Positions 456 through 22,382 of a stretch of DNA of 64,000 nucleotides are shown here, one piece after another. The notes under the pieces are model-generated. The model did not search any database and had not been told where the DNA came from. It saw only the letters and a program-made list of their open reading frames with translations. A program made the position numbers and the translations under genes. The number at the start of each line of letters is the position of its first letter. The first letter of the stretch is position 1. This DNA comes from an uncultured bacterium (GTDB lineage: Bacteria > Patescibacteriota > Patescibacteriia > CAIQCM01), in contig OY970181.1 of assembly GCA_963708045.1 (NCBI GenBank), positions 779,537 to 843,536 on the forward strand, written 5' to 3'.

Positions 456-1766
456 TTAACAAATCAACATCCCATTTTGAAAAGTGATATTGCTACGGAT
501 TCCTAAAAGCAGATTTCTTTTTTCCTCCCGCGTTCCTTCTTTTAAAATATATTTGGCGCAGGCGTAAACATCAATTTTTGGAATTTCAGCGGCGATTTTG
601 GCGGTTAATGTATGTCCACCCAAGCTTGTGATCATTTTTTGCATTCGGTCGATTTCTTCTTTTATACGTTCAATCGCGGTTAGCTTGTCGATCTTGATTT
701 TATCGACCATTTTATAAAGTTGGTTTAGCAATTCTTCTTCGCGTATATACGGCTGTTTGCATTTGGTCTCCCACCGCTTACAGCAACCATAATATACATA
801 GCGATGTATCGTTCCGTCTTTAAGTCGCTTCATTTTTTCCGTTGCGGTTATACCATATCCGCAACCGCCGCACCGGAACATTTTTATGAACCCGAATTCT
901 TTACTGCCTTGCGGTTGTTTTGGCGACCCTTTCATTACTTCCTGAACGCGGTCAAATATCTCTTGATTGATTAGGGGTTCGTGCTTTCCGGTGAACCATT
1001 TACCACTGCCTTCCGGGAATTCGTAACGCCCGGTATAAAAATGATTATCCATCATTCTATAAATCATGCTTAAGGTAATTTTCTTGCCTTTTCTTGTCGT
1101 AAACTGTTTTTCATCGTCTAACCATCGTTTTACATCTCGCCCTGTCCAACCCTCGTATGCGACCTTTTGAAAGACCTCGCGGATGGCCGGTCCGCGTACA
1201 GGGTCAATAAAGATCAGTTTACCGCCCTTGAGACCGAATTTGTCGTGTAGATAGCCTAAGGGAGCCATTGTCGGCCTATAGCCCATCTCCAGCTTCGCCC
1301 TAAGGCCGCGTTTAACATTTAAGCCCTTGTTATCGTTTTCTAGCTTGGCTTGACTGCAAAGCATCATCAGCATGAACTTGTCGCTTGGCGAATTGGTGAA
1401 TCTGGGGCCGCTGGTTCGAATCTCCTTAAGCAATCCTTGATCCATAAGATCGACCACAGTTCCGAGGTCGCCTGCATTACGACTTATGCGGTCAGCCGCC
1501 CAAGTTAGAATCGCGTTGAACTTGCCAGATCTGATATCTGCCACAATACGATTAAACTCCGGTCGTGAGCCGGAGCTTTTTGCCGAATGACTTTCTTTTC
1601 GGACTTCCGTGATATTCAACCCATCACGGGCGGATTGCTCCAACATCTCCTTAATTTGGCTATCAATCGACAATGCCTGCCGTTCGTCGTCCTCGGTCGA
1701 TTTGCGGGCATAGAGACAGTAGGTAAGGGCTGGTGCGGCGACGGCTGTATTTGCTTGTTCGCTCAT
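456..1766 (-). CDS. large serine recombinase (resolvase/integrase family)
   Basis: ATG start. N-terminal 'YCLYARKSTEDDERQALSIDSQ' carries the catalytic-Ser motif (Y-x-R-x-S-T...Q) and 'DRISRN' of serine recombinases. Central recombinase domain. Cys cluster 'CGGCGYG...YYGCCKRWETKC' is a typical zinc ribbon of large serine recombinases. A coiled-coil tail follows. Confidence 0.9.
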   Translation of the reverse strand: MSEQANTAVAAPALTYCLYARKSTEDDERQALSIDSQIKEMLEQSARDGLNITEVRKESHSAKSSGSRPEFNRIVADIRSGKFNAILTWAADRISRNAGDLGTVVDLMDQGLLKEIRTSGPRFTNSPSDKFMLMMLCSQAKLENDNKGLNVKRGLRAKLEMGYRPTMAPLGYLHDKFGLKGGKLIFIDPVRGPAIREVFQKVAYEGWTGRDVKRWLDDEKQFTTRKGKKITLSMIYRMMDNHFYTGRYEFPEGSGKWFTGKHEPLINQEIFDRVQEVMKGSPKQPQGSKEFGFIKMFRCGGCGYGITATEKMKRLKDGTIHRYVYYGCCKRWETKCKQPYIREEELLNQLYKMVDKIKIDKLTAIERIKEEIDRMQKMITSLGGHTLTAKIAAEIPKIDVYACAKYILKEGTREEKRNLLLGIRSNITFQNGMLIC

Positions 1767-2047
1767 ATTTACGCTTAATTCTTACAAGCCACACACTACC
1801 GCGCCTGTCCCGGGTGCCTAGTCCCAGAAGTAGGCAAGCTGTTGGTAACTAAAACCTTTACATAAAGGCTTTTTATGTTAGTATTCAAATGTCTCTACTC
1901 AACTTAAGCTCGGGCTTTTGCTCGAACCGGATAGCGCGCTTTAAGCGGCATCCGGATAAAACAACTCTTGCACTATCCAGTGCTTTAGTTGGGTAGAGAC
2001 ACCTCCGGGTGTCGCTTTTGTTTTATAAGCACATCCGAATCGAAGAT

Positions 2048-3742
2048 ATGCTTAATGAACAAACGACACAGGAGGCGTTGCTCGTAAAAATTGCCGCGCT
2101 TCAAAACGAAATTAAAAAGCTTAAGAAAAGAAAGAAGTACGGACTCGTGTGGGAAGAAAAACCTGAAGAAGTTGTTTTACAATGTCAAAATAATATTCCG
2201 GTTTTGAAAGAAGTCAAAACCCGAAAAATAATTGGCGGTTCGGGGAATAATATTTTGATAGAGGGCGATAATTATCACGCTCTTTCCGTTCTTAATTATA
2301 CGCACAAGAAAAGCATTGACCTTATTTATATTGACCCTCCGTATAATACGGGTGCTAAAAATTGGAAATATAATAATGACTATATTGATAAGGAAGACGC
2401 TTATCGTCATAGCAAATGGCTTTCGTTAATGTGCCATCGTATTAAGTTGGCCAAAAATTTGCTTAAAGATAATGGGGTGTTAGTTTGTGCCATTGATGAA
2501 AATGAACAAGCGCATTTAGGTGCGCTTATTGAAGAGATTTTTCCAACATACGATCAACATACGATAACAGTGGTGCATAATCCAAAAGGAGTCCAGGGAA
2601 CAAATTTTTCATATACCCACGAATACGCAATTTTTGTCGTACCAAGTAATAAAAAAACTATAGGGGATCGCTCTCTTGTCGAAGATGAGATTTATGTTTC
2701 AAATTTAAGAAATTGGGGGAATGAATCTGAACGAACAGATGCTAAGAATTGTTTTTATCCGATAGTGATATCAAGAGAAAAAATTGTAGGCTTTGGCAAT
2801 GTTGCACAAAATGAATTTCATCCCAAATCAGCAAATGAAAAACAAAAAGACGGCACCATTTGGGTTTGGCCGATTGATGAGAAAGGTGTTGAAAGAAAGT
2901 GGCGTTATGCACGCCAGAGCGTCGAAGAAATAAAAGATATACTTCAGATTAAAGAAACGAGGGGTGGTTTGATTCAGATAATGATTGCCAAAGATTATGG
3001 CACATATAAAACTGTTTGGAATGATAAGAAATATGATGCAAGCGAATATGGAACCAAACTACTTAGAGAAATAATTCCAAATTGCGATTTTGATTTTCCA
3101 AAATCACTTTATACAGTTTATGATTGTATTTTTGCGGTAGTTGGAGATCGTCTTCATGCAAATGTGCTTGATTTTTTTGCCGGGTCGGGAACGACTGGCC
3201 ACGCGGTTCTTGAATTGAATAAAAAGGATGGTGGCAATCGTCAATTTATTCTTTGCACTAATAACGAAAGCAATATTTGCGAAGAAGTAACATACGAACG
3301 CATCAAACGCGTTATCAAGGGATATAAGAACAAGAAGGGCGAAAAAGTTGATGGCCTTGGCGGTAATTTATCGTACTACAAAACAGATTTGGTTAATGTT
3401 GAAAAACTTCATCGCGTTTCGGACGACGCGAAAATCAAGATTACCCATCAAGCCGGTGAGATGATCGCGCTTCGCGAGGATACGCCGAATGAGGTTGAAA
3501 AAACCGATTGGTGGCAGGTCTTTAGCGGCGGCGGAAAAATAACGGCAATCTACTTTAAGGAAGATAAGCAAAAATTATCAGAGTTAGTTAAAAAACTTGA
3601 AAAGGAGCAAAAGCCGACGGTTCTCTATGTCTTTAGCTGGGGGAAGAATGAATATAAAAACGAATTCACCTCAAAGCTTATTCATATCGAGGATATTCCC
3701 GATCCAATTCTTGAGGTTTACAAAGAAATCAACCGCGCTTAA
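2048..3742 (+). CDS. mod: Type III restriction-modification Mod subunit (N6-adenine DNA methyltransferase)
   Basis: 'IDPPYNTG' (motif IV, DPPY) precedes 'DFFAGSGTTGHA' (motif I, FxGxG). This order is the beta-class arrangement of Type III Mod and other N4/N6 MTases. The gene lies immediately upstream of, and is translationally coupled to, a Res-like helicase. The ORF track starts at a GTG at 2009. The first ATG is at 2048. Confidence 0.85.
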   Translation: MLNEQTTQEALLVKIAALQNEIKKLKKRKKYGLVWEEKPEEVVLQCQNNIPVLKEVKTRKIIGGSGNNILIEGDNYHALSVLNYTHKKSIDLIYIDPPYNTGAKNWKYNNDYIDKEDAYRHSKWLSLMCHRIKLAKNLLKDNGVLVCAIDENEQAHLGALIEEIFPTYDQHTITVVHNPKGVQGTNFSYTHEYAIFVVPSNKKTIGDRSLVEDEIYVSNLRNWGNESERTDAKNCFYPIVISREKIVGFGNVAQNEFHPKSANEKQKDGTIWVWPIDEKGVERKWRYARQSVEEIKDILQIKETRGGLIQIMIAKDYGTYKTVWNDKKYDASEYGTKLLREIIPNCDFDFPKSLYTVYDCIFAVVGDRLHANVLDFFAGSGTTGHAVLELNKKDGGNRQFILCTNNESNICEEVTYERIKRVIKGYKNKKGEKVDGLGGNLSYYKTDLVNVEKLHRVSDDAKIKITHQAGEMIALREDTPNEVEKTDWWQVFSGGGKITAIYFKEDKQKLSELVKKLEKEQKPTVLYVFSWGKNEYKNEFTSKLIHIEDIPDPILEVYKEINRA

Positions 3743-3745
3743 ATT

Positions 3746-6076
3746 ATGTTTTCGCTAAAGCCATTTCAAGAACAGACGGTCGCCAAACTGCGTAACGAAT
3801 TTTTATCGTTATGGAAATCGCCACACGATAACATTTCGCTAGTTTTTAAGTCGCCAACGGGTTCGGGTAAGACAATTATGTTGGCGCAATTTTTGCGCGA
3901 TATGGTGGGAGATCCGCGCTTTCAAGGGAACGATGTAGCTTTTGTTTGGTTCTCGTTTAGCGAAGACTCATACGAACAAAGCAAAAAGAAGCTGTTTGAT
4001 TATTACGGTGGCGCTTCGGAGCTTGATTTGCTGGATTTGAATGACCTGTCGCGCGGCAAGCTTAACAAGAACAGCGTTTTCTTTATTAACTGGCAAAAGA
4101 TCAAGGGCAAATCAAAAGAAAGCCGAAAACTGCGACGCGACAATGAATGGGGTTTAACATTCGATAGTTTGATTGAAAAGACGCACGAAGACGGTCGCAA
4201 ACTTGTCGTTATCATTGACGAAGAACATATTGGTTCGGATACAGAGCTGGCTTTTGAGGTTATTAATGGACTTATCAAGCCGAAAATAACTATTCGCGTT
4301 TCCGCGACGCCGAAGTATATCCCTAACGCCGAGGAAATAGGAGAAAAGAAAGGCGGTTTTGTCCAAGCAAAGCGCGACGAAGTTATCGAGGCCGGCCTTA
4401 TTAAAGAGAAAATCGTCTTTCAAACGAAAGAAGATTTGGATTTGAAAGAATTTAAGGAAAAGGATCAAGACGAGATTTTACTTGAACTCGCATATCGCAA
4501 GAGAAATGAGACATCGGCCTTGTATAAAAAACTTGGAGTTTCCGTTAATCCGCTTGTGTTGATTCAGTTGCCGAATGACGACCAAGAGGTAAAAGGCACG
4601 ACGACGGTCAACAAACAAACAATTGTTATTGATTATTTGAAAAGCAAGGGCGTAGGGGAACACGAAATTGCGATTTGGCTTTCGAACGAGAAAATCAATC
4701 TCGAAGAAATAGAAAATAATACTTCGCCAATTTCGTTTTTGCTCTTTAAGCAAGCCGCGGCGACTGGTTGGGATTGTCCTCGCGCCAGCGTACTCGTGAT
4801 GTTCCGCGAGATCAAAAATCCGACCTTTGCCATTCAAACGGTTGGCCGCATTTTACGCATGCCTTTTGGGACGCATTTTGCCAAACCCGAACTCAATATC
4901 GGCTACCTCTACACGAACTATAAGCGTAATGAAGTGCTGGCGGAATACGCCAAGTTGAAGAACGAAAATCGTCCGGCCATTTATCCGAGCTACCGCAAAG
5001 AATCGGTAAAGCCGATTCAAATGGAATCCGTGTTCATGAGCCGAACAGACTATAACGATCTTGGGGACAGCTTCCAAGAAGCGTTTGGCAAAGTCGCAGA
5101 CAAGTATTTTGATATCGGTGAGCGCGATATGGCTTTAACCGCCATTAAGAAAATGGAAAAGGCTGGTTTGAATTTTTCGCCAAAGGTAACAAATGGGATT
5201 ATCGTTGGCGTTGAGATTGACGATTACGATAATTTTACCAACGAGCTATTAAACGAAGGTGGTAGCTACGACCAAGAAATGTCCGAATATGATCTTGAGC
5301 AGCTGTATAACCTTATTTGCTTTAAAGCTATATCAAAGCAAACCGATGAATTAAAGAAGTTTGCGCCTGAACGATCTTGGGGAAAGTTAAAAACTGCGCT
5401 TAATGTTTGGCTTATCAAACGCGCTGCGCAACCGCGTCAAATTATATATCGGGTAATCGTAAACGACTTGTTAAACGCAAACAGCATTTTGGCTCCGCTT
5501 ATCGGCTCCGCGCTCGCCGCATATCGTCCGATACGCGAACATGAGGTTAACAAGCGGTCGGAACGCTCGCGCCGTACCGAGGTTATCGAAATACCGAACG
5601 CATCGCTTTTCTATACCGATCAGTATCGCGTGATGAAAACCGAGCGCTGCGCCATGGAACCGTTCTATATTGAAAAGGATTATCAAGGTGAAGATAACGA
5701 GTCCGCGTTCATTAAATTTATCGATAACCATAAGCGGATTGAGTGGTGGTATAAGAATGGCGACTCGGGTAGCGAATTCTTTTCTATCCCATATTTCAAT
5801 CCCGAAGAAAACAAAGAAAAGCTGTTTTATCCAGACTGGATAATAAAAACCAAAGAGGGGATATGGATCATTGATACTAAAGGCGGCGTTACGGCTGAAC
5901 TCATTGATACTAAGTATAAGGCCGAAGCGCTTCAGGTGTGGCTTAAGGGTAAGAAAGGTTTTGGTGGCGGCATAGCCGTTCAAGACGGTCCCAATGGTTG
6001 GAAAATAAATAATAATGCTAATTATTCATATACCAAATCCCTTAGTGGCTGGAATAATTTAAACGACAGTCTATAA
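3746..6076 (+). CDS. res: Type III restriction enzyme Res subunit (SF2 helicase-nuclease)
   Basis: Helicase motif I 'SPTGSGKT' and DEAH-type motif II 'VIIDEEH'. A large C-terminal region follows. The start lies 4 nt after the mod stop. Confidence 0.85.
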   Translation: MFSLKPFQEQTVAKLRNEFLSLWKSPHDNISLVFKSPTGSGKTIMLAQFLRDMVGDPRFQGNDVAFVWFSFSEDSYEQSKKKLFDYYGGASELDLLDLNDLSRGKLNKNSVFFINWQKIKGKSKESRKLRRDNEWGLTFDSLIEKTHEDGRKLVVIIDEEHIGSDTELAFEVINGLIKPKITIRVSATPKYIPNAEEIGEKKGGFVQAKRDEVIEAGLIKEKIVFQTKEDLDLKEFKEKDQDEILLELAYRKRNETSALYKKLGVSVNPLVLIQLPNDDQEVKGTTTVNKQTIVIDYLKSKGVGEHEIAIWLSNEKINLEEIENNTSPISFLLFKQAAATGWDCPRASVLVMFREIKNPTFAIQTVGRILRMPFGTHFAKPELNIGYLYTNYKRNEVLAEYAKLKNENRPAIYPSYRKESVKPIQMESVFMSRTDYNDLGDSFQEAFGKVADKYFDIGERDMALTAIKKMEKAGLNFSPKVTNGIIVGVEIDDYDNFTNELLNEGGSYDQEMSEYDLEQLYNLICFKAISKQTDELKKFAPERSWGKLKTALNVWLIKRAAQPRQIIYRVIVNDLLNANSILAPLIGSALAAYRPIREHEVNKRSERSRRTEVIEIPNASLFYTDQYRVMKTERCAMEPFYIEKDYQGEDNESAFIKFIDNHKRIEWWYKNGDSGSEFFSIPYFNPEENKEKLFYPDWIIKTKEGIWIIDTKGGVTAELIDTKYKAEALQVWLKGKKGFGGGIAVQDGPNGWKINNNANYSYTKSLSGWNNLNDSL

Positions 6077-6133
6077 AGCCCTGTTGATTGAATTACCCAA
6101 ACAAATAATATAAATTAATTCGTAAAAATAATT

Positions 6134-6592
6134 ATGAATAACAATGCCAATAATCAAGAAGTCTGGGATAAAATCCTAGGCAAAGACGAGAAAGTTAAAC
6201 ACAGTTTTACAATCGGCCCACGGTATCTAAAATACAATCTTATCGCCGGTGCGATAATCTGCGTGCCGTTCGTTTTCGCGTACGGTTTTGGCGTCGTCTT
6301 GTTCTTGATTATTCTGTTCAACTACGGTTTCTACGCTAAGAAGTTGAACATCTACGCCTTTACTGATAAGCGCGTATTAATCCACAAGGGCTGGCTTTCA
6401 ACACACATGACTAGCATCGACTATTCAAAAATTACCGATGTCCATGTTCGGGAACAATTCTTGGATAAAATCGTGTACCATACGGGCGACTTGGCCATTA
6501 ATACGGCCGGAAGTGGACGATTAGAAGTCTTCCTAAGACACATCGAAAACCCGTACGAAGTGAAGAAGATTTTAGACGAACTTAAGGGCTAA
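6134..6592 (+). CDS. membrane protein with bacterial PH (bPH_2/YdbT-like, DUF304) domain
   Basis: Two predicted TM helices ('LIAGAIICVPFVFAYGFGVVLFLIILF') followed by 'YAFTDKRVLIHKGWLSTHMTSIDYSKITDVHV', which is typical of the YdbS/YdbT PH-domain family. Confidence 0.55.
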   Translation: MNNNANNQEVWDKILGKDEKVKHSFTIGPRYLKYNLIAGAIICVPFVFAYGFGVVLFLIILFNYGFYAKKLNIYAFTDKRVLIHKGWLSTHMTSIDYSKITDVHVREQFLDKIVYHTGDLAINTAGSGRLEVFLRHIENPYEVKKILDELKG

Positions 6593-6607
6593 CTCGAGGC
6601 TAATAAT

Positions 6608-6644
6608 AAAAACGCCGTCCATACTTCGCGAACGGCGTTTTTGA
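6608..6644. terminator. bidirectional rho-independent terminator-like hairpin between convergent genes
   Basis: 'aaaaacgccgt' / 'acggcgttttt' form an 8-9 bp GC-rich stem around a 13-nt loop. An A-run lies upstream and a T-run downstream. It sits between the + gene ending at 6592 and the - gene ending at 6646. Confidence 0.55.
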
Positions 6645-6645
6645 T

Positions 6646-8139
6646 TTAGATAAAGTAGACTCGCGGAACGATCGGAGGATTTTCCAAGAGACTATGGACG
6701 ACATTGGCGAAAGCGTCGGCAAGGTCATCGTGTTTTTCAACGCCGAAATGAACGATCTGTTCGATTAGACGTTCCGCCCCTTCGCGCGGGAAGAGAATTT
6801 TTCCGGTCTTAATCATGTTGGCCGTAAGCACCAGCCTACTGCGTTTGTCTTGGACTCCGGGCCTAATCGTCAGCACGCCATCAATGCCTTCATATTTAAG
6901 CTGTTGGGGCAATGCTTTTTGGTAGGCGACATCCTCGATGATCAGTTTGGGGTAATCGTAATCCTCCTTGTAGCTGTTATATAGCGTTTTACACATATCG
7001 ACCGTTTCTGGGAAGGTCATGCGCTTATTTATGATTTTAGGCAAAATATATATGCGGTATCCGTCTTCGAGTTCAAAGAGGACTCCGGGCACCATGGCCG
7101 TATAATCAGCCGCATCACTTGTTGATATGGCTGGATCAATGCCAATCCGTACCTCAAGATGCGACCGGTATCCTTGGAATAGGACAAGTCTTTCGGGAAT
7201 CTTGTCGTAGTATTGAATCCATTCGCGTTGGATGGCTTGGTCTTCGGCCGGAACGATGTTTAGGAGATACTCACGTTGCCAAGCGAATTCGTTGGCGGCT
7301 TTGCTTTTCTCTTCTTCAATTTCGGTCATTGTCGGATATTTGCCCGGCCAAATTATTGCGCCGTCGGTAATTAGGGGATAGGACTTGAAGACGCCGTTAA
7401 TCTTTTTCTTGTCGATGTCCTCTTTAAGGCGCATGAGGAGTGAGTCCTCGTGCAAGAGGTTGCCTATGATAACGAGCCGCGTATTGCGGTCGCCAGCCGG
7501 AACCACTTCTCCAGTCAGCCATTGATAGGTCTTGTTCCGACCCTCGCGTGTTTTGGTGGAGGCCAAGTCTTCAAGGTCATCGCCGATAATAAGGTCGGGA
7601 CGGTGTTGATTATGGCGTAGGCCACGGACGCTTTGTTCGGTGGAAACGGCAGTTATACGGGCATGCAAACTGGAGAAAACGAGCGACGATGCGCCCCATT
7701 CGTTATTTTCTTCTTGGAACGGTCCAAGGTCGTTTTTTAGAAGCGAATTGCTTTCAAGCTCGCGGCGCAGGTTCATCATGTGTTGTTTAGCTTGCGCTTG
7801 CGTTTGGCAAAGGATTAGCACAAACTTTTTCTTTTGCTCGCCAAGAATCGCCCAAACCGGGTATGAGGTCGTGAAGATTGTCAACTTAGCCGAACCGCGA
7901 AACGCCACAATAAACAAGTTTTTAATGTCTTGCCTTTCGCTAAGGCGAAATAGCTCGCGCTGGAATTCTGCGGTAGCATATTTCACATAATGAGCGAAGT
8001 AGAAGTGAAAGAACATGAAATGACTCTGGCGGGTGATGGCTGCGCGAACGGTTCGGTCGCGGAACATTTCGTTTGCCAACTCCGGCGGCATTCCCTTGTT
8101 TTCTTCTTGCGTCGCGTTTTTCTCGATAAAGTTTTCCAT
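6646..8139 (-). CDS. phage terminase large subunit-like protein
   Basis: C-terminal RNaseH-like nuclease motifs typical of TerL: 'GIDPAISTSDAADYTAMV' and a terminal 'HDDLADAF'. An N-terminal ATPase-like region precedes them. The start lies directly downstream of a TerS-like gene. The track start is a TTG at 8199. The first ATG at 8139 leaves a 5-nt gap to the TerS stop. Confidence 0.65.
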   Translation of the reverse strand: MENFIEKNATQEENKGMPPELANEMFRDRTVRAAITRQSHFMFFHFYFAHYVKYATAEFQRELFRLSERQDIKNLFIVAFRGSAKLTIFTTSYPVWAILGEQKKKFVLILCQTQAQAKQHMMNLRRELESNSLLKNDLGPFQEENNEWGASSLVFSSLHARITAVSTEQSVRGLRHNQHRPDLIIGDDLEDLASTKTREGRNKTYQWLTGEVVPAGDRNTRLVIIGNLLHEDSLLMRLKEDIDKKKINGVFKSYPLITDGAIIWPGKYPTMTEIEEEKSKAANEFAWQREYLLNIVPAEDQAIQREWIQYYDKIPERLVLFQGYRSHLEVRIGIDPAISTSDAADYTAMVPGVLFELEDGYRIYILPKIINKRMTFPETVDMCKTLYNSYKEDYDYPKLIIEDVAYQKALPQQLKYEGIDGVLTIRPGVQDKRSRLVLTANMIKTGKILFPREGAERLIEQIVHFGVEKHDDLADAFANVVHSLLENPPIVPRVYFI

Positions 8140-8143
8140 ATAT

Positions 8144-8620
8144 TTATTCAACGGATTTATTATTAAGATTTTCAGGTTGTTTAGAATTTTGGTCGGCAAC
8201 AGTCGGTTCCGTGGGCTGTCTTATGGTCATGGAGGCAAGCCGGAGTGCTTCTTTAACGGTCGCTTCTTGCTCCTCAGTTAGTTCTTCTTGCGGACGAGCC
8301 GCCGCTACTTCCAGTCGGTCGCGGAAGCGTGGACTTCTTTTCCTAAGCCAGAAACTGATTGCGTTAAAGTTTTGTTCTTTTATCGCGGTAATGAGCTTGG
8401 ACTCGGCCATGTCGCTCACCAGTTCGTCGCCCTCGTCGATGGCCGCATCGCAGGCCGTTGCAAAATGCGGATCTTCTTTGCGCCAGCGGTAATATGTGGC
8501 GCGGCTAACACTTGTCTTTTCGCACGAGAGCTGGACGATCGGCGTTTTCTTAAGCTGATCGATGAGTGCGATCTTTTGTTCTTTTTGTCGCTCCAAGGCG
8601 GCTTCGTTAGCGTTTTCCAT
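8144..8620 (-). CDS. phage terminase small subunit-like HTH protein
   Basis: 'CEKTSVSRATYYRWRKEDPHFATACDAAIDE...AISFWLRKRSPRFRD' matches the HTH-containing terminase small-subunit family pattern. Position immediately upstream of TerL. Confidence 0.6.
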   Translation of the reverse strand: MENANEAALERQKEQKIALIDQLKKTPIVQLSCEKTSVSRATYYRWRKEDPHFATACDAAIDEGDELVSDMAESKLITAIKEQNFNAISFWLRKRSPRFRDRLEVAAARPQEELTEEQEATVKEALRLASMTIRQPTEPTVADQNSKQPENLNNKSVE

Positions 8621-9404
8621 AGATGCTGGTCAATTTAACGGCTTTAATTCCTGTATGGTTCTCAATGCGCCTGATGATGGTTCGGCAGTACTCAATATCC
8701 GCCTCGACCATATAACAGCGTCGTTTGGTATCCTCACAGGCGATCATTGTCGAACCAGAACCGCCAAAGCCGTCGTAGACGATTTCATTGACCTTGGTGC
8801 TGTTTAGGATTAGACGGCGTAGCAACCCGACCGGCTTCATCGTTGGATGAAGCTTGCTGGCACTTGGTTTAGGATAAACAAGAATCGACTTGTCCTTTGC
8901 TTTGTGGAATTTATGCCGTCCGAACCAGCCATAGGCGATAAGTTCGTGTTGGGGTAGGTAGTCCATCCGTCCGATTACGGCGTGCGTCTTTATCCAGATC
9001 AGTAGTTGCGTAAACGCGTAGCCGGCTTCGCGCATCGCCTCGCGAAGCGCGAAGATCATCTTGTCGGAGTTGAAGATATAGACGCTGTTGTGACTCGCGA
9101 GAAACGGACGAACAGCCATAAGCCAGTCTTTGGTAAAGGCGCGGTATTCGTCGTCGGTCTGTTCGTGGTCGTTTAGGATTATTTTTTCTTTACCAAGTTT
9201 TTGCTTGAATCCGGACTTGCTTTCAACGTACCCGACGGCGTACGGCGGATCGATAACGACGGCGGCAATCTTGTCTTTTCCGATCAATGTTGCGACCGAT
9301 GACGCGTCAAGCGAACTACCGCACAAGAGGCGGTGTTCGCCGATGGCGAAAATATCGCCTTGATTAACCGATACGGACGGCTTTGTTTTTTGTGAGGGCT
9401 TCAT
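8607..9404 (-). CDS. DNA methyltransferase (N4/N6 class, DNA_methylase_N-4/N-6 domain)
   Basis: 'VVIDPPYAVGY' (DPPY motif IV) near the N-terminus and 'FGGSGSTMIACEDTKRRCYMVE' (motif I) near the C-terminus. ATG start. Confidence 0.8.
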   Translation of the reverse strand: MKPSQKTKPSVSVNQGDIFAIGEHRLLCGSSLDASSVATLIGKDKIAAVVIDPPYAVGYVESKSGFKQKLGKEKIILNDHEQTDDEYRAFTKDWLMAVRPFLASHNSVYIFNSDKMIFALREAMREAGYAFTQLLIWIKTHAVIGRMDYLPQHELIAYGWFGRHKFHKAKDKSILVYPKPSASKLHPTMKPVGLLRRLILNSTKVNEIVYDGFGGSGSTMIACEDTKRRCYMVEADIEYCRTIIRRIENHTGIKAVKLTSIYGKR

Positions 9405-10659
9405 ATCTTTTTATGATTAGGGTACAAAAGACGGGATCGATTTCACACAGAAAGGCGCGGCGCTTCATCTGCTCGCAACAGGAAAGAGTAGAGCCAGAAC
9501 CGCCGAATAAGTCCAAGACAGTATCGCCGGGTTTGGTACAACGGCGCATGGCTTTTTCATGAAGTGTCGTTGGTTTTTCCGTCGGGTGCTCGTAGTCTTG
9601 CGCCGGAAGACGTTTGACGAGCCAGATGTTAAAGAGATCGATAATGTCGTCGATGGCGCGATTACCACTCGCGACTTCTTTATTCAACACCTCGTTAAGG
9701 TTTTGTATGCGTGGTACAAGGAACGGTTTGCCGCGTGTGCCATAGACGCAAGGCTCGTATGCCTTGTTGAACGCGACTTGCGGAGTCATATTAAAGTTAT
9801 TTTTGACCCAAAGGCAGACGCGTCGATTAACAATGCCTAGTTCCTCGTATAAACTCTGAACCAATCCGATACTCGCTTCGTCGCACCAGAAGAAAACATG
9901 CGTATTCGGTTTTGCGACCGCAAGACCATTTTCCATCGCTCGCTTTAAGAATAGGCGATAGTCAGCATGCGTCTTTTTATCGTTTGTTTCACCGCCGTAT
10001 TTTCCTGATGTGCTGATGCCTTTGCTGTAATCAAGGGAAATGTTATACGGAGGGTCGCTGTAGATCATGTCGATTTGGTTTTTGCCTACCAATCGTTTAA
10101 TCAACTTCGGGTCGGTTGAGTCGGAACACAGCAAGGTATGGCTTCCCAGCCGATACATTTCGTCCAGCTTAACGGTTGGTTTTTTAATCGCGGCAAGTTC
10201 CTTTTCAGTATCAAAATCGTCGTCCTCGGCTTCAAGCGAATCGTCCCAGACATTACCCAAGTCGATATCGTCGAAACCAGCATCAAGAAGCATTTCGATA
10301 TCAAACTCCTTGAGCATCTCAAAGTCCCATGATCCGTGAGCGCGATTTAGCGTTAGATTCAACGCCTTTTCTTTTTCGATATTCGGTATGTTCACGAAGA
10401 CCGCCGGAATTTCGGTGATGCCAAGTTCCTTTGCGCAGGCAACCCGCATATGGCCACCGATTAGGACGCCTTTCCGCGCAGGCGCGGAATTGACCAGCAC
10501 AGGATCAACTAACCCGTACTTTAAGATGCTTTCTTTTAACGTCGCCTTTTCGGACTCTGACCATTTTCTGGGGTTATAGATGGCCGGTTGTAACGATCCG
10601 ATCGGGATATATTGAACGGCGATTTTTGTGTCGTCGTGAGTTAGTATATTTTTTGGCAT
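9364..10659 (-). CDS. ParB-like nuclease domain fused to DNA methyltransferase (phage-type ParB-MTase)
   Basis: N-terminal ParB/Srx-like segment 'IPIGSLQPAIYNPRKW...GGHMRVACAKELG'. It is followed by 'MIYSDPPYNISLDY' and 'DLFGGSGSTLSCCEQMKRRAFLCE' MTase motifs. The track start (10725) is a TTG. The first ATG is at 10659. Confidence 0.8.
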   Translation of the reverse strand: MPKNILTHDDTKIAVQYIPIGSLQPAIYNPRKWSESEKATLKESILKYGLVDPVLVNSAPARKGVLIGGHMRVACAKELGITEIPAVFVNIPNIEKEKALNLTLNRAHGSWDFEMLKEFDIEMLLDAGFDDIDLGNVWDDSLEAEDDDFDTEKELAAIKKPTVKLDEMYRLGSHTLLCSDSTDPKLIKRLVGKNQIDMIYSDPPYNISLDYSKGISTSGKYGGETNDKKTHADYRLFLKRAMENGLAVAKPNTHVFFWCDEASIGLVQSLYEELGIVNRRVCLWVKNNFNMTPQVAFNKAYEPCVYGTRGKPFLVPRIQNLNEVLNKEVASGNRAIDDIIDLFNIWLVKRLPAQDYEHPTEKPTTLHEKAMRRCTKPGDTVLDLFGGSGSTLSCCEQMKRRAFLCEIDPVFCTLIIKRYEALTKNKAVRIG

Positions 10660-10701
10660 ATTTTTAGAAGAGATATGAAGAGTAAGCACAGAAATAAAAA
10701 T

Positions 10702-10763
10702 GCCCACCTCGCGGAGATGAGTCAAAATCTAAAAAGACTTTGGTTAATCTCTGCGAAGTGGGC
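10702..10763 (-). terminator. long stem-loop (17-bp imperfect stem) followed by a T-run on the minus strand
   Basis: 'gcccacctcgcggagat' (10702-10718) pairs with 'atctctgcgaagtgggc' (10747-10763) with 2 mismatches. On the minus strand the stem is followed by 'attttta ttt'. It lies between the 149-aa minus-strand ORF and the ParB-MTase gene. Confidence 0.35.
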
Positions 10764-10874: not shown

Positions 10875-11324
10875 TCACATGATGCCCTGTCGTTTCAAGG
10901 CCGCATACTTTTCAATCGCGTCTTTACCTAGAAGTATCGGAAGGTTTTGCGGGATAAATAGACGAACTTTTTTCCCGTTTTTTTCTGCCTTTTCCATCAC
11001 TTCCTTTAGTCCCTCGTCAAAAGGAAATACGAAGGTGAATGTTCTCCCGTCGCTATCTTTCTTTGGCCTAATCGCATTGTTCACATATGTCCTCCCAGGT
11101 CTCCCGGAACGGATTGAACTTTCCAGCCCGCGCGAGAATAATTTCGGGTTACAGACTGGATTAGTATGCAGAGTAATATCAGTTATGAAGATGTGTACTT
11201 CTTTTTCGGTCTCAGTTACGGTAGGACCACTAATTTTATGGTTATCCTTTTGGGGGATTGGGGTCGGGTTTCCCATAGGTATTACGTTCGCGGATTTTTC
11301 CGCCACGATCATGAATAAATACAT
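10875..11324 (-). CDS. hypothetical protein (149 aa)
   Basis: Minus-strand ORF co-oriented with its neighbours. Non-repetitive composition. It overlaps the DUF2188 gene 3' end, so the start is uncertain. The competing + strand ORF 10675..11460 looks non-coding. Confidence 0.3.
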   Translation of the reverse strand: MYLFMIVAEKSANVIPMGNPTPIPQKDNHKISGPTVTETEKEVHIFITDITLHTNPVCNPKLFSRGLESSIRSGRPGRTYVNNAIRPKKDSDGRTFTFVFPFDEGLKEVMEKAEKNGKKVRLFIPQNLPILLGKDAIEKYAALKRQGIM

Positions 11325-11463: not shown

Positions 11464-11464
11464 A

Positions 11465-11782: not shown

Positions 11783-12019
11783 AGAAATGGGGTTAATGTT
11801 AGTCCAACCCCATTTCTACTCGGAGACAAGCGATGTTGTTTAAGAGTAATTTCCGGGGGTGGTATTGGTTATATACTGACTTCGCCCATAAGACCCTTGA
11901 TTGTTTTTCAAGGCTTTGATATTTGGCTAGTTATTATAGATAAAACGTCTTTTCGCTGTGCAACGGCGATTAGGCGGTGGGTAATATTAGAATATATCCT
12001 AGAATGACGCAATATGTTC

Positions 12020-12048
12020 TTGACCTAACTTATCCACAGTGCTATGAT
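12020..12048 (+). promoter_or_regulatory. sigma70-like promoter TTGACC-N17-TATGAT; the predicted TSS lies only a few nt before the ATG (leaderless-type)
   Basis: 'ttgacc' at 12020-12025, an exact 17-nt spacer, 'tatgat' at 12043-12048, and the ATG at 12058. A small palindrome 'ttagctaa' lies between the -10 and the ATG. Confidence 0.5.
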
Positions 12049-12057
12049 TAGCTAATT

Positions 12058-12663
12058 ATGAACAACCTCCACCGAACGCAGTCTAAGCTCTTGGAACTCC
12101 TTAAGGAGAACCAGACAGAGCCATTGACCATGATGGAGCTGAAGGAAGAAATGAGCCTCTCGTCCACGAGCGTGGTTTTTCACCATATACGCCAACTAGA
12201 GAAGAAAGGTCTTTTACGTCGTAACCCGGCAAACCCTAACGACTATCAGGTACTCTCGGAAGACGATAAAGATAAAAAGATTGCTTATTTAAATTTATAC
12301 GGTTTGGCCCAATGCGGTCCTCATGGAACCATCTTAGAAGATACGCCGGTTGATCGAATTCCTATTTCAACACAGATACTTGGTTTTTCGTCCACCGATG
12401 CGTTTTTGGTTCGCGCACGTGGTAACTCGATGGTGCCGAAAATATACAATAACGATCTTGTTATCGTAAAGAAGACTGAAAATATAAACGATGGCGATGT
12501 TGCCGTATGTGTAAATGAAGGTGAGGCTCTAATTAAGAAGGTAAGAAAGATAGACTCAAAAATATTTTTATTTTCTGAAAATCACGAATTTGAATCTTTT
12601 CCAGCGAGCGATGATTTCCGCGTTGTTGGCGTGGTAAGAGGTGTGCTTTCCTACACGATCTAA
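12058..12663 (+). CDS. LexA/CI-like transcriptional repressor (HTH + S24 peptidase domain)
   Basis: N-terminal winged-HTH 'MMELKEEMSLSSTSVVFHHIRQLEKKGLL'. The C-terminal S24 domain has 'GNSMVP' (Ser nucleophile) and a downstream Lys ('LIKKV'). Confidence 0.8.
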   Translation: MNNLHRTQSKLLELLKENQTEPLTMMELKEEMSLSSTSVVFHHIRQLEKKGLLRRNPANPNDYQVLSEDDKDKKIAYLNLYGLAQCGPHGTILEDTPVDRIPISTQILGFSSTDAFLVRARGNSMVPKIYNNDLVIVKKTENINDGDVAVCVNEGEALIKKVRKIDSKIFLFSENHEFESFPASDDFRVVGVVRGVLSYTI

Positions 12664-12676
12664 TAAATTTGTATTT

Positions 12677-13336
12677 ATGTCCTTTGAAAAACCGATTTCG
12701 AAAAAGATAGGGCGTAATGATCCTTGTTTTTGCGAATCGGGCAAGAAATATAAAAAATGTTGTTGGTTAGACGGAATTAAAATTACATCGACAGAAATAG
12801 GTAAGCATGGCCCGCCGCAGTCAATCGAAAAATATGTAGTCGATTTTTGTAAGACTATTTCCAACGATGATCCATTTTACATGGGGGTAGAGTCAGGAGC
12901 CGATGATGAACCGCTGGATTGTTTTAATAACGTTCGAAAATATATAACAAAAAGTGGCGGGGACATGATGCTGGGCTGGCAAATATGGGAATGGTATGGA
13001 TTTATGATTGAGGCAGAGTTCCATGCAGTTTGGAAAACCACCGACGGTGAATTAAAAGATGTGACGCCGAAACCTATACCTTTCGATCGGGTTTTGTTTT
13101 TGCCAGACGCGTCTCTGGAATACGATGAAACTCAAATTAATAATAAACGTTTCGCTCTATCTAAAGATATTCGCGTAACGGAATACATTAACCTGTGCGA
13201 AGAGGAATTTAAAATTAAAAATTTAGGCGAGAGAGCTAAGAAATACGATGGCCTCAATTTTTCTGCAGACGAGATTAAGCGTCTAGAAGAAATATTTCAG
13301 CGTCGTATTGAAATTGAACATGAATTGGTACAATAA
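12677..13336 (+). CDS. SEC-C motif (SecA C-terminal zinc-binding-like) domain protein
   Basis: 'RNDPCFCESGKKYKKCC' is the SEC-C metal-binding motif. The track start (12641) overlaps the upstream gene. The ATG at 12677 ('MSFEKPI') is preferred. Confidence 0.55.
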   Translation: MSFEKPISKKIGRNDPCFCESGKKYKKCCWLDGIKITSTEIGKHGPPQSIEKYVVDFCKTISNDDPFYMGVESGADDEPLDCFNNVRKYITKSGGDMMLGWQIWEWYGFMIEAEFHAVWKTTDGELKDVTPKPIPFDRVLFLPDASLEYDETQINNKRFALSKDIRVTEYINLCEEEFKIKNLGERAKKYDGLNFSADEIKRLEEIFQRRIEIEHELVQ

Positions 13337-13814
13337 AGTCTTAAAAGTTGTAGTCAAGGAACAGGTAACGATAGCGACATTCACAGTTACCGCGTTGTCC
13401 GGCGTACTCACATGGCGGTATGGCTTCCATCATGCTTTCGCATGGCAAAATATTACGCCGATATCCGCACCGGAGCTATTCGAGCGTGTGATTTACAGCG
13501 CATTGGTATTCGTGAGTATCGGGGCTTTTCTTTACTGGGCTAAGTTTTATAAGTGGTTGCATGGGGTAATCGTTATTGGTCTCGAAGACCGATGGCTCTA
13601 CAGGAAAGTAAAGGCGATTATCTGGGGTATCTTGATGCTGGTCATGTATTTTTGGATCGTTCCGACCGTCGTAAATATCTTAAATTTTGTGGTTTCACTA
13701 ATATACAACCTCTTAAACTTTGCGATATATCTTTTCCCGCCAATTGGTTGTGCTGTTATAGTCACCGGTTTGGCGGGTATATTCGTTCTACGTAAGGGGA
13801 ATCTGCACGATTAA
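13308..13814 (+). CDS. hypothetical polytopic membrane protein
   Basis: Three to four hydrophobic helices. No motif. An alternative start lies at 13320. Confidence 0.4.
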   Translation: MKLNMNWYNKVLKVVVKEQVTIATFTVTALSGVLTWRYGFHHAFAWQNITPISAPELFERVIYSALVFVSIGAFLYWAKFYKWLHGVIVIGLEDRWLYRKVKAIIWGILMLVMYFWIVPTVVNILNFVVSLIYNLLNFAIYLFPPIGCAVIVTGLAGIFVLRKGNLHD

Positions 13815-13825
13815 GATATAAGATT

Positions 13826-14545
13826 ATGAAATATTTGAAGAAATTGCACCTATTATGTTTTTCAATAGAAGAAATAAAACAACTTCTAAGTGATGAATTT
13901 AAAAGGATCGTATTTGATGGTCTCGGTAAACAACAGATTGACTTAACCGCTTTTCGCAAAAACCGCAAGGCCATGGAAGATTTTGTTTCCGATTTGGTGA
14001 GAAAGAACAGTAAACGAAAAGAATTCGTCAAACTGTTTTATGCTACTGATTTGGCTGATTCCGTTTATGTGTCTAATGATACCTTGGTCTGTTTTGAATT
14101 AAAGAAAACCATACAACCAAATTCTATTCCAATCCCCAATAATTATCAGGAATTGATTGATATCTTAGAGGAGAATACGCCCGTTGATTTTGCCATCTCA
14201 AACAAAGAGGGGCTTAGGCAATTTCAGTTGAAACAATATAAAGATTTATTAGAAACCGAAAAAGTTGCCGAATTCATAAAGAAAAAGCTCAAGACTTACG
14301 GAAACCTTGGACAAATTAATTTGTTGGTCGTGCTTCAGGGGCGCGATAACGATGGTTCCACAATTGTTCCTGTTAATATTGATTTTGATAAAGTTTATAA
14401 CCACTTAAAAGATGGAAAATTTAAAATAGCCGCGGAAGTCTTAATCGCAATGAACGACCGAAATGAGGAACAGACATTCACTCAAGTTTATCCAAAATTG
14501 AATCGATTCAGAAAAAAGATTTCAATGTCTAGCTCGCGGTGGTGA
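13826..14545 (+). CDS. hypothetical protein (239 aa)
   Basis: Clean ORF with no competitors. No recognisable motif. Confidence 0.45.
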   Translation: MKYLKKLHLLCFSIEEIKQLLSDEFKRIVFDGLGKQQIDLTAFRKNRKAMEDFVSDLVRKNSKRKEFVKLFYATDLADSVYVSNDTLVCFELKKTIQPNSIPIPNNYQELIDILEENTPVDFAISNKEGLRQFQLKQYKDLLETEKVAEFIKKKLKTYGNLGQINLLVVLQGRDNDGSTIVPVNIDFDKVYNHLKDGKFKIAAEVLIAMNDRNEEQTFTQVYPKLNRFRKKISMSSSRW

Positions 14546-14601
14546 AGTTGGGAATAATAAAAATGTTCAAGGTGTAATTAGCTAGATTCTATTAAAAACA
14601 T

Positions 14602-15156
14602 ATGTTCAAAAAAAGAATAATAAAGTATCGGAATATTCTAAAAAAATTACCTCTAATAATCCCTCTTTTTGCAATTGCAATAACACTGATTATAAATATT
14701 TGGAATTCCTATGCGAGTTTTAATGGGAGATTAAAGGTTTTACTTAGTGCTACGGTTTATAATAATGGCATTTTCAATACCGTGGAGTCGAGTATAAAAG
14801 ATGGAAGCTTCAATCAGAAAAATTTTTCTAGTAGTTTTAATATAGATATCTATAAAAATAATCTAGACTTATTAGGTTCGTTACGGGGTGATTGTATCGA
14901 GACATATTTTCAACTAATCGCGCGCATGGATGGTATTAATCGTAAGAATGATAAACTTTGGGATTTATATATACAAGAAGGTCTTATTTTTGAAAGTAAT
15001 CAATGGAAAAATACAAAAGAACGTCAAGAAGGTTTGCAAAATGATTTAAAAAAAGAAGTACTCGAGGTTGTTTCTCTCTTTAATACGATTCACAAAAATT
15101 CAAACTGTGCATTTCGTACAAAAAACTTCCTAGGAATATTTTCCCCGGGATTATAA
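14602..15156 (+). CDS. hypothetical protein with N-terminal TM anchor (184 aa)
   Basis: N-terminal 'LPLIIPLFAIAITLIINIW' hydrophobic segment. No motif. Confidence 0.45.
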   Translation: MFKKRIIKYRNILKKLPLIIPLFAIAITLIINIWNSYASFNGRLKVLLSATVYNNGIFNTVESSIKDGSFNQKNFSSSFNIDIYKNNLDLLGSLRGDCIETYFQLIARMDGINRKNDKLWDLYIQEGLIFESNQWKNTKERQEGLQNDLKKEVLEVVSLFNTIHKNSNCAFRTKNFLGIFSPGL

Positions 15157-15222
15157 TACTAACAAGCGTGGGCAAGAGCTGGGCCATGTTTTTCCGGTGG
15201 CGAGCTGTCTATTATCGGGTAA

Positions 15223-16545
15223 ATGCTATTCATAACAATGCATTTTAAAATTCATATGCCCGGCCACATTGATACCGATATCCAATATTGCCTCTACGCG
15301 AGAAAAAGTACCGAATCGGAAGAACGCCAATCGCTATCAATAGAATCCCAGATTAAAGAAATGACCCGGGTCGCAGAACGTGATCGGTTGGTTATTAAAG
15401 AAATCAAACGCGAAAGCCGGTCGGCAAAATCACACGGCGGTCGTCAGGTTTTTAACGATCTCATCAACGAAATTAGCCAAGGTAAATTTACCGGCATCGT
15501 CGCTTGGTCGCCGGATCGGTTAAGTCGCAATGCAGGTGATTTAGGTGTCTTGGTAGATTTGATGGATGCTGGAAAGCTTTTAGAAATTCGGACTTTTAAC
15601 CAAAGATTTACAAATTCGCCAAACGAAAAGTTTTTACTCATGATCTTGGGTAGCCAGGCCAAACTTGAGAATGATAATCGGAGCGTTAACGTAAAGCGGG
15701 GGATGCGGGCGCGGGTTGAGATGGGGTTATGGCCGGGAGTGTCACCGCTGGGCTATCTTAATCAATACCGAACCGATAAGAAGTGCGAGATTATAGTTGA
15801 TGAAGCTCGTGCACCAATAATCAAGCAGATGTTCAAGAAAGTCGCCGACGAAAAATGGACAACGCGCGATATACATAAATGGCTTAAGGATACCGGTTTT
15901 AAAACTCGTGGAGATAAACCCCTCGCTTATAGCGGTGTGCAGCGAATGCTGACGAACTCTTTTTACTACGGAAGATTTGAATACCCAAGGAACAGCGGCA
16001 AATGGCATACCGGTAAACACGAGCCGATAATTACCAAAGATTTATTCGAACGGACACAACAAAGATACCGCCGCCTTTCTTATAAAAGTAAAGTAAGGGA
16101 ATTTTCATTCGTTCGGCTTTTTACCTGCGGCCTTTGCGGATCTGGAATATCCGCCAGCGAAAAGTTTAAAAATCTCAGCGACGGCACGGTTGCGCGTTAT
16201 ATTTATTACAACTGCAACCTCGGTAAAGATAGGTTTTGTAAAAATACATCTATTAGGGAGGAGGAGCTAATTAAGGAGTTGATTAAGGTTGTCGATACTG
16301 CCGAAATTGACGAACTTGGTATCCGTCATAAATTTGAAAATGAAGTTGAACGATTTGGAAAATTCAACAATTACATTCTCGGAAAACCTACTGATCTAAA
16401 GCCCGAAGAAATTGACATAAATATCCGCGCGTACGCCAAGTATGTCCTCATGGACGGATCAAAAAGCGAAAAACGAGAGCTGCTCGGCCACCTGCGAAGT
16501 CGCTTGGTTTATACGCACAAAAGGTTTAAGCTACTCCCGTCTTAA
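15223..16545 (+). CDS. large serine recombinase, paralog of the 456..1766 gene
   Basis: 'YCLYARKSTESEERQSLSIESQ', 'DRLSRN', and zinc ribbon 'CGLCGSG...YYNCNLGKDRFC'. It aligns by eye along its whole length with the first recombinase (roughly half identical). Orientation is inverted relative to the first. Confidence 0.9.
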   Translation: MLFITMHFKIHMPGHIDTDIQYCLYARKSTESEERQSLSIESQIKEMTRVAERDRLVIKEIKRESRSAKSHGGRQVFNDLINEISQGKFTGIVAWSPDRLSRNAGDLGVLVDLMDAGKLLEIRTFNQRFTNSPNEKFLLMILGSQAKLENDNRSVNVKRGMRARVEMGLWPGVSPLGYLNQYRTDKKCEIIVDEARAPIIKQMFKKVADEKWTTRDIHKWLKDTGFKTRGDKPLAYSGVQRMLTNSFYYGRFEYPRNSGKWHTGKHEPIITKDLFERTQQRYRRLSYKSKVREFSFVRLFTCGLCGSGISASEKFKNLSDGTVARYIYYNCNLGKDRFCKNTSIREEELIKELIKVVDTAEIDELGIRHKFENEVERFGKFNNYILGKPTDLKPEEIDINIRAYAKYVLMDGSKSEKRELLGHLRSRLVYTHKRFKLLPS

Positions 16546-22381: not shown

Positions 22382-22382
22382 T

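Follow-up and report, generated by a model that had tools for sequence, protein, structure and literature searches.

A 16-kb Patescibacteria genome segment with outward-facing large serine recombinases may combine a capsid-less integrative island and a second recombinase unit

We analyzed a 64,000-nt stretch of DNA from an uncultured member of the Patescibacteriota (contig OY970181.1, positions 779,537 to 843,536; hereafter the window), for which an earlier note (the original prediction) had proposed a 16-kb accessory island bracketed by two inverted, paralogous recombinase genes. The segment at 456-16545 was present as described, with two large serine recombinases (LSRs) pointing outward at its ends. 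LSR-A (436 aa; 456..1766, minus strand) forms the outward end of an arm carrying phage packaging genes, and LSR-B (440 aa; 15223-16545, plus strand) closes the opposite side. Their coordinates and strands were confirmed, and the two proteins aligned over 418 aa with 49% identity (E 6e-142). Each carried the Pfam Resolvase, Recombinase and Zn_ribbon_recom domains, with scores for the Resolvase domain PF00239 of 2.9e-19 in LSR-A and 1.2e-20 in LSR-B, and with PF07508 and PF13408 above the curated cut-off in both. The presence of the C-terminal recombinase domain and the zinc ribbon places them among integrase-type LSRs rather than small resolvases. The serine motif YARKST was at least 95% conserved among 183 family members.

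Between the two LSRs, the genes fall into two divergent arms. A LexA-like S24 repressor (12058-12663, plus strand) is followed on the same strand by genes for a SEC-C protein (12641-13336) and a membrane protein without family match (13308-13814). The packaging operon runs in the other direction, on the minus strand, from a control region (11783..12057) with back-to-back promoter-like sites at 11962..11933 (minus) and 12020..12048 (plus), both of which are consensus matches only. Its first genes code for a possible GIY-YIG-like protein (11465-11782) and a DUF2188 protein (11242-11463; match at 4e-24), followed by a conserved small gene (10875..11324), a ParB_N-methyltransferase fusion that is the first large gene of the operon (ParB-MTase; 9364..10725), a second N6/N4 DNA methyltransferase (MTase; 8607..9404), the helix-turn-helix terminase small subunit TerS (8144..8620; PHROGs 1e-10) and the terminase large subunit TerL (6646..8199; Pfam Terminase_6C). 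Past TerL, and antiparallel to these core genes, lie a bPH_2 membrane protein (6134..6592, plus strand) and the two genes of a Type III restriction-modification (R-M) system, Res (3746-6076, plus strand; Pfam ResIII/Helicase_C, PADLOC REase_III 3e-16) and Mod (2009-3742, plus strand; Pfam N6_N4_Mtase, PADLOC MTase_III 4e-71), which are adjacent and only 3 nt apart. On the right, LSR-B is preceded by two plus-strand genes without family match (13826-14545 and 14602-15156), and the three genes form what we call the LSR-B unit (13826..16545). The G+C content was 0.49 over the packaging genes and 0.32-0.44 around them, the flanks having about 0.38-0.42. Nearly all of the predicted gene list was confirmed with Pfam, PADLOC and PHROGs, including the combination of defence genes (Type III R-M) and phage-derived genes (TerS/TerL). 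The exception was the GIY-YIG nuclease, which matched the UvrC GIY-YIG domain only weakly (E 0.006) and had no Pfam or PHROGs match.

To place these genes in context, we used the window LSRs and TerL as seeds and assembled 76 loci from viral collections, 80 from genomes and 80 from metagenomes, for about 250 related loci overall (numbered up to L251). At least 589 hits were obtained among genome representatives, and the best 80 of these were almost all from Patescibacteria (the candidate phyla radiation, CPR), including Peregrinibacteria, Saccharibacteria, Paceibacterota, Kazan and Berkelbacteria, some of them complete chromosomes. The CPR association that had been suspected from gene content was therefore supported. 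The LSR family itself is large, with at least 7673 protein clusters at E <= 1e-100 in a protein search, none of which had a name more specific than "recombinase family protein" or "Pin-like invertase". At best, its members were 22-27% identical to the LSRs found in 50,697 phage records. LSR-A, LSR-B and RmlA had no exact match in the gene-position index searched.

When the window proteins were mapped onto these loci, a recurrent co-oriented string emerged, composed of ParB-MTase, an optional second MTase, TerS, TerL, a variable gap and an LSR. Since the minus strand of the window from 12663 to 456 matches this string exactly, the packaging genes are backbone and not cargo. Hence, the view that everything between the two LSRs is accessory did not hold, and the packaging and methylation module is better described as a conserved core co-inherited with LSR-A. 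When 1,081 ORFs taken from 82 loci were compared all against all, no more than four large clusters emerged (LSR, MTases, TerL and TerS), and the next in size had 14 members. Of 102 unique LSRs from LSR-seeded loci with at least 6 kb of upstream sequence, 50 had TerL upstream, 17 more had TerS or ParB-MTase, and 35 had neither. Conversely, a co-oriented LSR was found downstream of TerL in 26 of the 33 TerL-seeded loci with at least 9 kb of downstream sequence. In about 20 loci, the ParB-MTase operon had a divergent LexA-like gene beside it, a homologue of the small gene 10875-11324 preceded ParB-MTase in at least 13, and the second MTase was present in roughly half of the family loci. Several divergent island copies occurred on the same contig in some cases, and the genomic neighbourhoods differed between loci. 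Most members possessed a single LSR, so inverted bracketing by two LSRs is not the defining architecture of the group. A subclade (L012-L015, L019, L074, L087, L091, L096) carried two tandem TerL paralogues before the LSR, both with about 48-50% identity to the TerL of the window. One locus that seemed to lack TerL (L112) turned out to have a partial TerL at its edge.

In the window island, Pfam and PHROGs detected no genes for a portal, capsid, protease or tail, and the conserved clusters of the family contained none either. The nearest annotated phage TerLs (Mannheimia 3927AP2, SuMu, FP_Mushu) were only 25-27% identical and belonged to Mu-like phages, whose late operons also have an MTase beside the terminase genes. 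In these phages, however, the genes after TerL code for the portal, a head-morphogenesis protein, the protease and the major capsid protein, whereas in the island TerL precedes cargo and an LSR, which is not the layout of an intact tailed prophage. The genes after TerL in L179, whose layout seemed phage-like, were considered as structural genes and rejected, as PHROGs identified them as metabolic genes. In four close pairs of loci, dN/dS values were 0.02-0.04 for ParB-MTase, 0.02-0.10 for TerS, 0.01-0.11 for TerL and 0.017-0.04 for LSR, indicating that the core genes are under strong purifying selection and, as far as sequence comparison can tell, functional. Across 143 unique TerLs of the family, the Walker A (AFRGS[AG]KST), Walker B (DLIIxDDxED) and nuclease residues were essentially invariant. 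The island thus has the integrase, the repressor and a terminase without virion or lysis genes, in agreement with the phage-satellite-like nature that had been suggested. A conserved, presumably active terminase in an element without capsid genes would have its capsids supplied in trans, and this is what the satellite-like reading is based on.

The cargo of these islands was concentrated at two points. Between the TerL stop and the LSR start lay anything from about 130 nt to more than 5 kb, with less than 400 nt in 53 loci and more than 5 kb in 15. A Pfam census of these slots (145 ORFs in 57 TerL-LSR gaps, 66 families matched) revealed R-M methylases and nucleases of Types I, II, IIG and III, reverse transcriptases with bAvd, DUF4352 proteins and others, with no virion genes among the 25 commonest families. 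The Type III system of the window recurred in this slot, with unchanged orientation, in L002/L045, L038, L158, L187, L191 and L246 (Res 50-74% identical), and the bPH gene also adjoined TerL in L054 (60%), L165 (48%) and L246 (83%). The second variable point lies directly past the LSR stop, where variable defence genes are typical of the family. In clade L197-L240, whose core is 86-92% identical at the nucleotide level, homology ends at the LSR stop codon and is followed by 0-2.5 kb of differing genes, then by a common Type I R-M system. In the window, the ORF after LSR-B (16442..17452, plus strand; probable real start near 16555) is a PD-T7-5-like candidate defence gene (PADLOC PD-T7-5 2e-19; phrog_8571), and the defence cargo therefore continues past the right boundary of the original prediction. 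On the other side, a gene with homologues in mobile-element contexts lies beyond LSR-A. The two LSRs do mark the ends of the segment as described, but these ends were not demonstrated to be element boundaries, and we detected no direct or inverted repeats above chance flanking it.

The reverse transcriptases with bAvd represent diversity-generating retroelements (DGRs), which occupied the slots of 7-9 loci, with RVT_1 in 9 ORFs, bAvd in 7 and DUF4352 targets in 6. The loci concerned include L002/L045, L003, L017, L038/L042, L068, L219, L238 and L241, and several of them contained repeat pairs of about 125-135 nt with 86-92% identity that are candidate template and variable repeats. CPR DGRs may commonly ride on these islands; a previous study treated them as cellular and mentioned no such island context (Roux et al., 2021; PMC8144416).

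The clearest trace of integration came from tRNA genes. A tRNA gene was located within 300 nt of the LSR stop in 20 of the 176 unique LSRs with downstream sequence (2.4 expected), and all 20 were on the opposite strand with their 3' ends facing the LSR (binomial P ~5e-13). Farther away, 300-1500 nt past the LSR stop, 17 tRNA genes were in the opposite orientation versus 4 in the same orientation, and only one was found within 300 nt upstream of an LSR. The adjacent tRNAs were mostly tRNA-Ser, along with Arg, Asp, Gln, Glu, Trp and Asn, and the nearest genome relatives of LSR-B (L144, L130, L136, L162, L024) were all beside a tRNA-Ser. Because of this oriented adjacency, the LSR gene can be placed at the element terminus, and the pattern is, judged from sequence, the trace that site-specific integration next to the 3' ends of tRNA genes leaves behind. 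At the far ends of the tRNA-adjacent relatives, we saw no displaced tRNA 3' copies, and the spacer between the tail-to-tail LSRs of L044 had no obvious dyad. The dnaG-rpoD genes, which recur downstream of some LSRs, were rejected as an integration target since their distance was variable. Two loci had tRNA copies close to the LSR. In L108, the 3' end of a tRNA-Ser was repeated as a perfect 22-nt copy (11462-11483) between the LSR stop and the tRNA gene (11622-11711), and L152 had a full tRNA-Arg duplicated (3774-3848 and 5231-5305) around 1.4 kb beside the LSR. These copies are possible attachment-site scars or signs of tandem accretion.

The window has two LSRs, and several lines of evidence indicate that they have separate histories. 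In the family alignment, LSR-A and LSR-B were 47% identical, LSR-B ranking only 167th of 182 among the relatives of LSR-A. Their nearest relatives were L083 (59%) for LSR-A and L144 (64%) for LSR-B. The two paralogues thus belong to distant subclades and did not arise by local duplication. The closest relative of the island, L246, had nucleotide homology with the window over 4877-8548 and 10692-13780, with identities of 88% for LexA, 78% for SEC-C, 69% for the membrane protein 13308-13814, 79% for TerL, 83% for bPH and 74% for Res; the small genes and TerS were also common to both, including the DUF2188 and possible GIY-YIG-like genes that open the operon divergent from LexA. This homology stops at about 13780, at the end of gene 13308-13814, beyond which L246 has a different gene and does not share the LSR-B segment. 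Conversely, L249 carried an LSR 95% identical to LSR-B (P0014) that was the only ORF in common with the window (15285-16539 versus 2158-3412 of L249, 89% nucleotide identity), both of its flanks being unrelated. A window-like outward LSR pair was also found on contig 3300014208_000734, which contains L036 and L054. There, a tRNA gene lies beyond each LSR on the strand opposite to it, which is the pattern that two integrations at neighbouring targets would be expected to produce.

Furthermore, LSRs were recurrent at the end of the LexA-led arm. In L250/L251, an LSR 73% identical to LSR-B ends this arm, opposite the ParB-MTase/MTase/TerS/TerL arm, and an LSR was also found on the LexA-arm side in L054, L025 and L227. 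The end of the repressor arm is therefore a second recurrent position for a recombinase, and both positions are filled in the window. The repressor-arm end is also the classical position of the integrase in phage-inducible chromosomal islands (PICIs) and lambdoid phages. We conclude that the outward LSR pair reflects modular accretion of two independently acquired LSR units, and neither a duplication nor a bracketing design. The original prediction had left the choice between one integrative element and two abutting ones; the distant LSR subclades, L246 and L249 fit the latter better. Two units probably abut at about 13.8 kb, and this is more likely than a single composite moving as a whole. 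In L246, ParB-MTase (4865-6229, versus 9364-10725 in the window) was only 34% identical while the other shared genes were 64-88% identical, and the second MTase was missing, which suggests that the methyltransferase was swapped as an allele within an otherwise conserved backbone.

On balance, we lean towards reading the segment as a member of a Patescibacteria-wide family of small capsid-less integrative islands to which a second, separately acquired LSR unit has been added. The backbone, from about 456 to 13.8 kb, would consist of the LexA-like repressor, which is of the self-cleaving type, the divergent operon, the cargo slot and the terminal LSR-A. In such an island, the repressor would keep the operon silent through the divergent promoter region 11783-12057, until DNA damage or infection by a helper phage leads to expression of the ParB-MTase/TerS/TerL operon. 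The LSR would excise and re-integrate the island, and TerS/TerL would package its DNA, or DNA downstream of a pac site, into helper-phage capsids. The methyltransferases may pre-protect the transferred DNA, and the defence systems of the slot may repay the host for keeping the island. The LSR-B unit (13.8-16.5 kb) would have been acquired independently at the end of the LexA-led arm, leaving two units head-to-head or a composite. In this model, we infer from the genes that the island is excised, depends on a helper, packages DNA, is under SOS control and has active defence systems.

Several observations weigh against this reading. The P-loop of the window TerL is AFRGSAKLT, with a Leu in place of the Ser/Thr that follows the Walker A Lys, the sole exception among the 143 TerLs. 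This change is probably inactivating, and the window copy may be packaging-dead unless the Leu codon is a sequencing error. A replication module of its own, a defining feature of classical satellites, was not found, as no primase or replicase was present among the conserved or window genes (Pfam, PHROGs, clusters), and no candidate helper phage was identified. The 64-kb window contained no tRNA gene or tRNA fragment. Attachment sites, an empty site or an excised circle were not found for the window or for any relative, and no contig was perfectly circular although tandem copies exist; L043 alone among the contigs had a terminal repeat, but the copies were only 93% identical (30 mismatches in 438 nt), which indicates a tandem pair and not a circle. 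About one-third of the family LSRs had no packaging genes within 6-10 kb, indicating that the LSR can exist without the packaging module. In L250/L251, no LSR follows TerL and the sole LSR is the one on the LexA arm. The roles that we assigned, with LSR-A as the island integrase and LSR-B as the stranger, could thus be reversed, or both LSRs could be part of one composite. Finally, homology breakpoints coincide with the ends of the LSR ORF on both sides (L249; L061 versus L072; clade L197-L240), a pattern that a simple terminal integrase does not explain and that leaves room for a role in cassette exchange.

Among the alternatives, a single composite is the most plausible, though we consider it unlikely. 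Both LSRs would then belong to one 16-kb island that moves as a unit or has an inverting interior. The recurrence of an LSR at the LexA-arm end, opposite the packaging arm, speaks in its favour, as do the general arrangement of integrase and repressor on one side and an operon with TerS on the other, which is classical in PICIs and lambdoid phages, and the presence of outward LSR pairs in at least three loci (the window, L227 and the contig with L036 and L054). However, the single-LSR state of most members and the distant origins of the two LSRs are not expected of a composite, nor is the behaviour of L246, which lacks the LSR-B segment, and of L249, which has LSR-B alone in foreign flanks. 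The tRNA genes of the L036/L054 contig fit separate integrations, and the two ends of the segment share no inverted or direct repeats. Nothing favoured an invertible element, which had also been suggested, and no inverted repeat pairs were found when 1-460 and 1767-2008 were compared with 15157-15222 and 16546-17000.

The breakpoints at the LSR ends lend themselves to a different and rather improbable reading, in which the LSR anchors an integron-like cassette platform. Recombination sites just before and just after the LSR ORF would serve to capture and swap defence, R-M and DGR cassettes, and TerS/TerL would export them by transduction. Such a platform would account for the homology breaks at the LSR start and stop, for LSR-B in different flanks and for cargo on both sides of the LSR. 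As in defence islands and integrons, close relatives differ by whole defence cassettes at fixed points beside a recombinase gene. Unlike in integrons, we identified no attC-like repeats or cassette borders, the enzyme is a serine recombinase and not IntI, and the cassettes lie on both sides.

We give a similarly low probability to a domesticated device, akin to a gene transfer agent or to lateral transduction, that would export adjacent defence genes in situ while the LSR acts in local rearrangement. The cargo does lie downstream of TerS/TerL, which would be the direction of headful packaging if known pac phages are a guide, and close relatives share both flanks and differ by cassettes only, with no empty sites found. 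Against a resident device, the oriented tRNA adjacency is a signature of site-specific integration, and the islands can be present in several divergent copies per contig, differ from their flanks in G+C content and sit in variable neighbourhoods.

A decaying prophage remnant, with recombinases that are relics without current function, seems quite improbable. The TerL, TerS and MTase genes are of phage origin and have no structural genes around them, the window TerL has its unique Ser-to-Leu change, and many relatives are classed as viral by IMG/VR. Yet the same five-gene core without structural genes is found in hundreds of divergent loci, with dN/dS of 0.01-0.11 and invariant catalytic residues. 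Random decay is not expected to yield one minimal architecture, and we did not see frameshifts in most copies. Least probable of all, and by our estimate very improbable, is that the terminase-like and ParB-MTase proteins form an anti-phage system of decoy or interfering terminases, a proposal that draws on the consistently defence-rich surroundings and on the ability of satellites in general to interfere with helper packaging, but that is at odds with the retained ATPase and nuclease sites and the accompanying TerS, which fit genuine packaging, with the linkage to an integrase and a repressor typical of mobile elements, and with PADLOC, which found no model beyond R-M, PD-T7-5/PD-T7-1, PDC-S12 and E2 in the 10 window proteins scanned (TerL, TerS and ParB-MTase were not among them).

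If the segment is an integrative island with an added LSR unit, its closest functional parallels are the PICIs, including the staphylococcal pathogenicity islands (SaPIs) and the capsid-forming cfPICIs. PICIs and the island are both about 10-16 kb. They have an integrase and a repressor on one arm, transcribed away from an operon with packaging genes (TerS) at its end, lack genes for tails and lysis and carry defence or accessory cargo, and the helper-virion dependence of PICIs would apply to the island as well. However, PICIs use a tyrosine recombinase and the island an LSR. Classical PICIs do not have TerL and cfPICIs have capsid, portal and protease genes, whereas the island has both TerL and TerS and none of those genes. 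It also differs in having no primase or replicase that we could find, a LexA/S24 repressor, an LSR located mostly past TerL at the far end, and CPR hosts.

The PLE of Vibrio cholerae, a satellite of phage ICP1, uses an LSR as its integrase (PMC6002521, PMC9638900). It resembles the island in this respect, in its size of about 18 kb and in its absence of capsid genes. PLEs are confined to one species, in contrast to an island family found across a superphylum, and the best LSR matches from annotated phages were 24-27% identical, with no detectable relationship. To our knowledge, PLEs have no terminase genes and no ParB-MTase. The characterized serine integrases and recombinases of phiC31, Bxb1, A118/TP901-1, TnpX/TndX and CcrAB share the Resolvase, Recombinase and zinc ribbon organization, the serine motif and the terminal position with the island LSRs. 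The latter differ from them in being short (430-450 aa) and frequently beside tRNA 3' ends, a choice of target that is typical of tyrosine integrases. The two LSRs of the segment lie at opposite ends, unlike the adjacent ccrA and ccrB of SCCmec.

A full-text literature search found no description of this island architecture, and the family is apparently undescribed so far. Patescibacteria represent a large share of bacterial diversity and have tiny genomes with few CRISPR systems, and we know of almost nothing on how they exchange DNA. If our reading is true, a capsid-less island with its own complete terminase would stand for a satellite strategy distinct from others and would probably be a major route by which genes are transferred horizontally, and these islands would be a vehicle for the R-M systems and DGRs characteristic of CPR. 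The family also offers thousands of compact serine integrases (about 435 aa) with diversified, partly tRNA-directed targets for genome engineering. Caution is needed with these loci in IMG/VR, where they are counted as viruses despite having no virion genes.

Additional features were observed around LSR-A. A 230-aa gene cut by the window start (its 3' 146 codons at 5..445, plus strand; 100% identical to P0001) is convergent with LSR-A, only 10 nt separating the stop codons. Because its homologues are found in phage- or mobile-element-like contexts (L244 and L245, and phage-like gene strings), it is probably not part of the host backbone. On a 4-kb contig from another sample, a radical-SAM/SPASM protein gene precedes this 230-aa gene, which is then followed by the LSR-A 3' end. 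A palindrome with a 9-bp stem at 420..444 (minus strand), directly after the LSR-A stop and recognized by consensus scan and from sequence, is a putative terminator, and a hairpin that resembles a bidirectional terminator was read between the convergent TerL and bPH genes (6607..6641). About 80 nt upstream of the LSR-A start, a leader at 1837..1872 (minus strand) consists of a hairpin followed by the conserved box GTTACCAACAGCT. Of 190 family LSRs, 28 have the same box (CCAACAGC) no more than 150 nt upstream, and in clade L192-L240 it belongs to a TerL-LSR intergenic region that is highly conserved. This region of about 130 nt (e.g., 11465-11588 in L204) is more conserved than coding third positions. 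It contains a perfect 22-nt palindrome, TTTCCTTTAATATTAAAGGAAA, and the box GTTGCCAACAGCTAGC, and a GGAGGC...GCCTCC pair encloses the LSR start codon.

A structured RNA-like motif of about 140 nt (fold z-score -5.2) was found at the LSR-proximal edge of the slot (1887..2026, minus strand), followed by a terminator-like hairpin and then by LSR-A. Three other occurrences were detected, in L027 (2709-2851), L084 (6722-6884) and L250 (1213-1355, minus strand), the last of which scored 106 bits and was independent of the model. The motif always lies in the post-TerL slot, directly upstream of the next co-oriented gene. Compensatory changes were present in 10 of the 35 pairs, G-U pairs favoured the operon strand, and no Rfam match was obtained. 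It may be a leader or a riboswitch-like element.

The conserved small gene upstream of ParB-MTase (10875-11324, minus strand) probably encodes a 133-aa product. It had no Pfam, PHROGs or PDB match, a word-index search returned only the homologues P0011, P0012 and P0013, and its AlphaFold model had a pLDDT of 49 and was unusable. The long plus-strand ORF that overlaps it (10675-11460) is probably spurious.

To the right of LSR-B, the ORFs at 16.5-21 kb had no assigned function and may be accessory too, and an IS200/Y1-transposase-like gene (226 aa) was present at 20498-21178. ArsR, thioredoxin-like, ArsP permease and NUDIX genes were found at 22076-24245. A block of about 17 kb (29386-47126) had a G+C content of 0.51-0.57, compared with about 0.40 elsewhere, and encoded giant proteins (1450, 1586, 1023, 619 and 608 aa) with fn3, PG_binding and DUF6333-like stretches.

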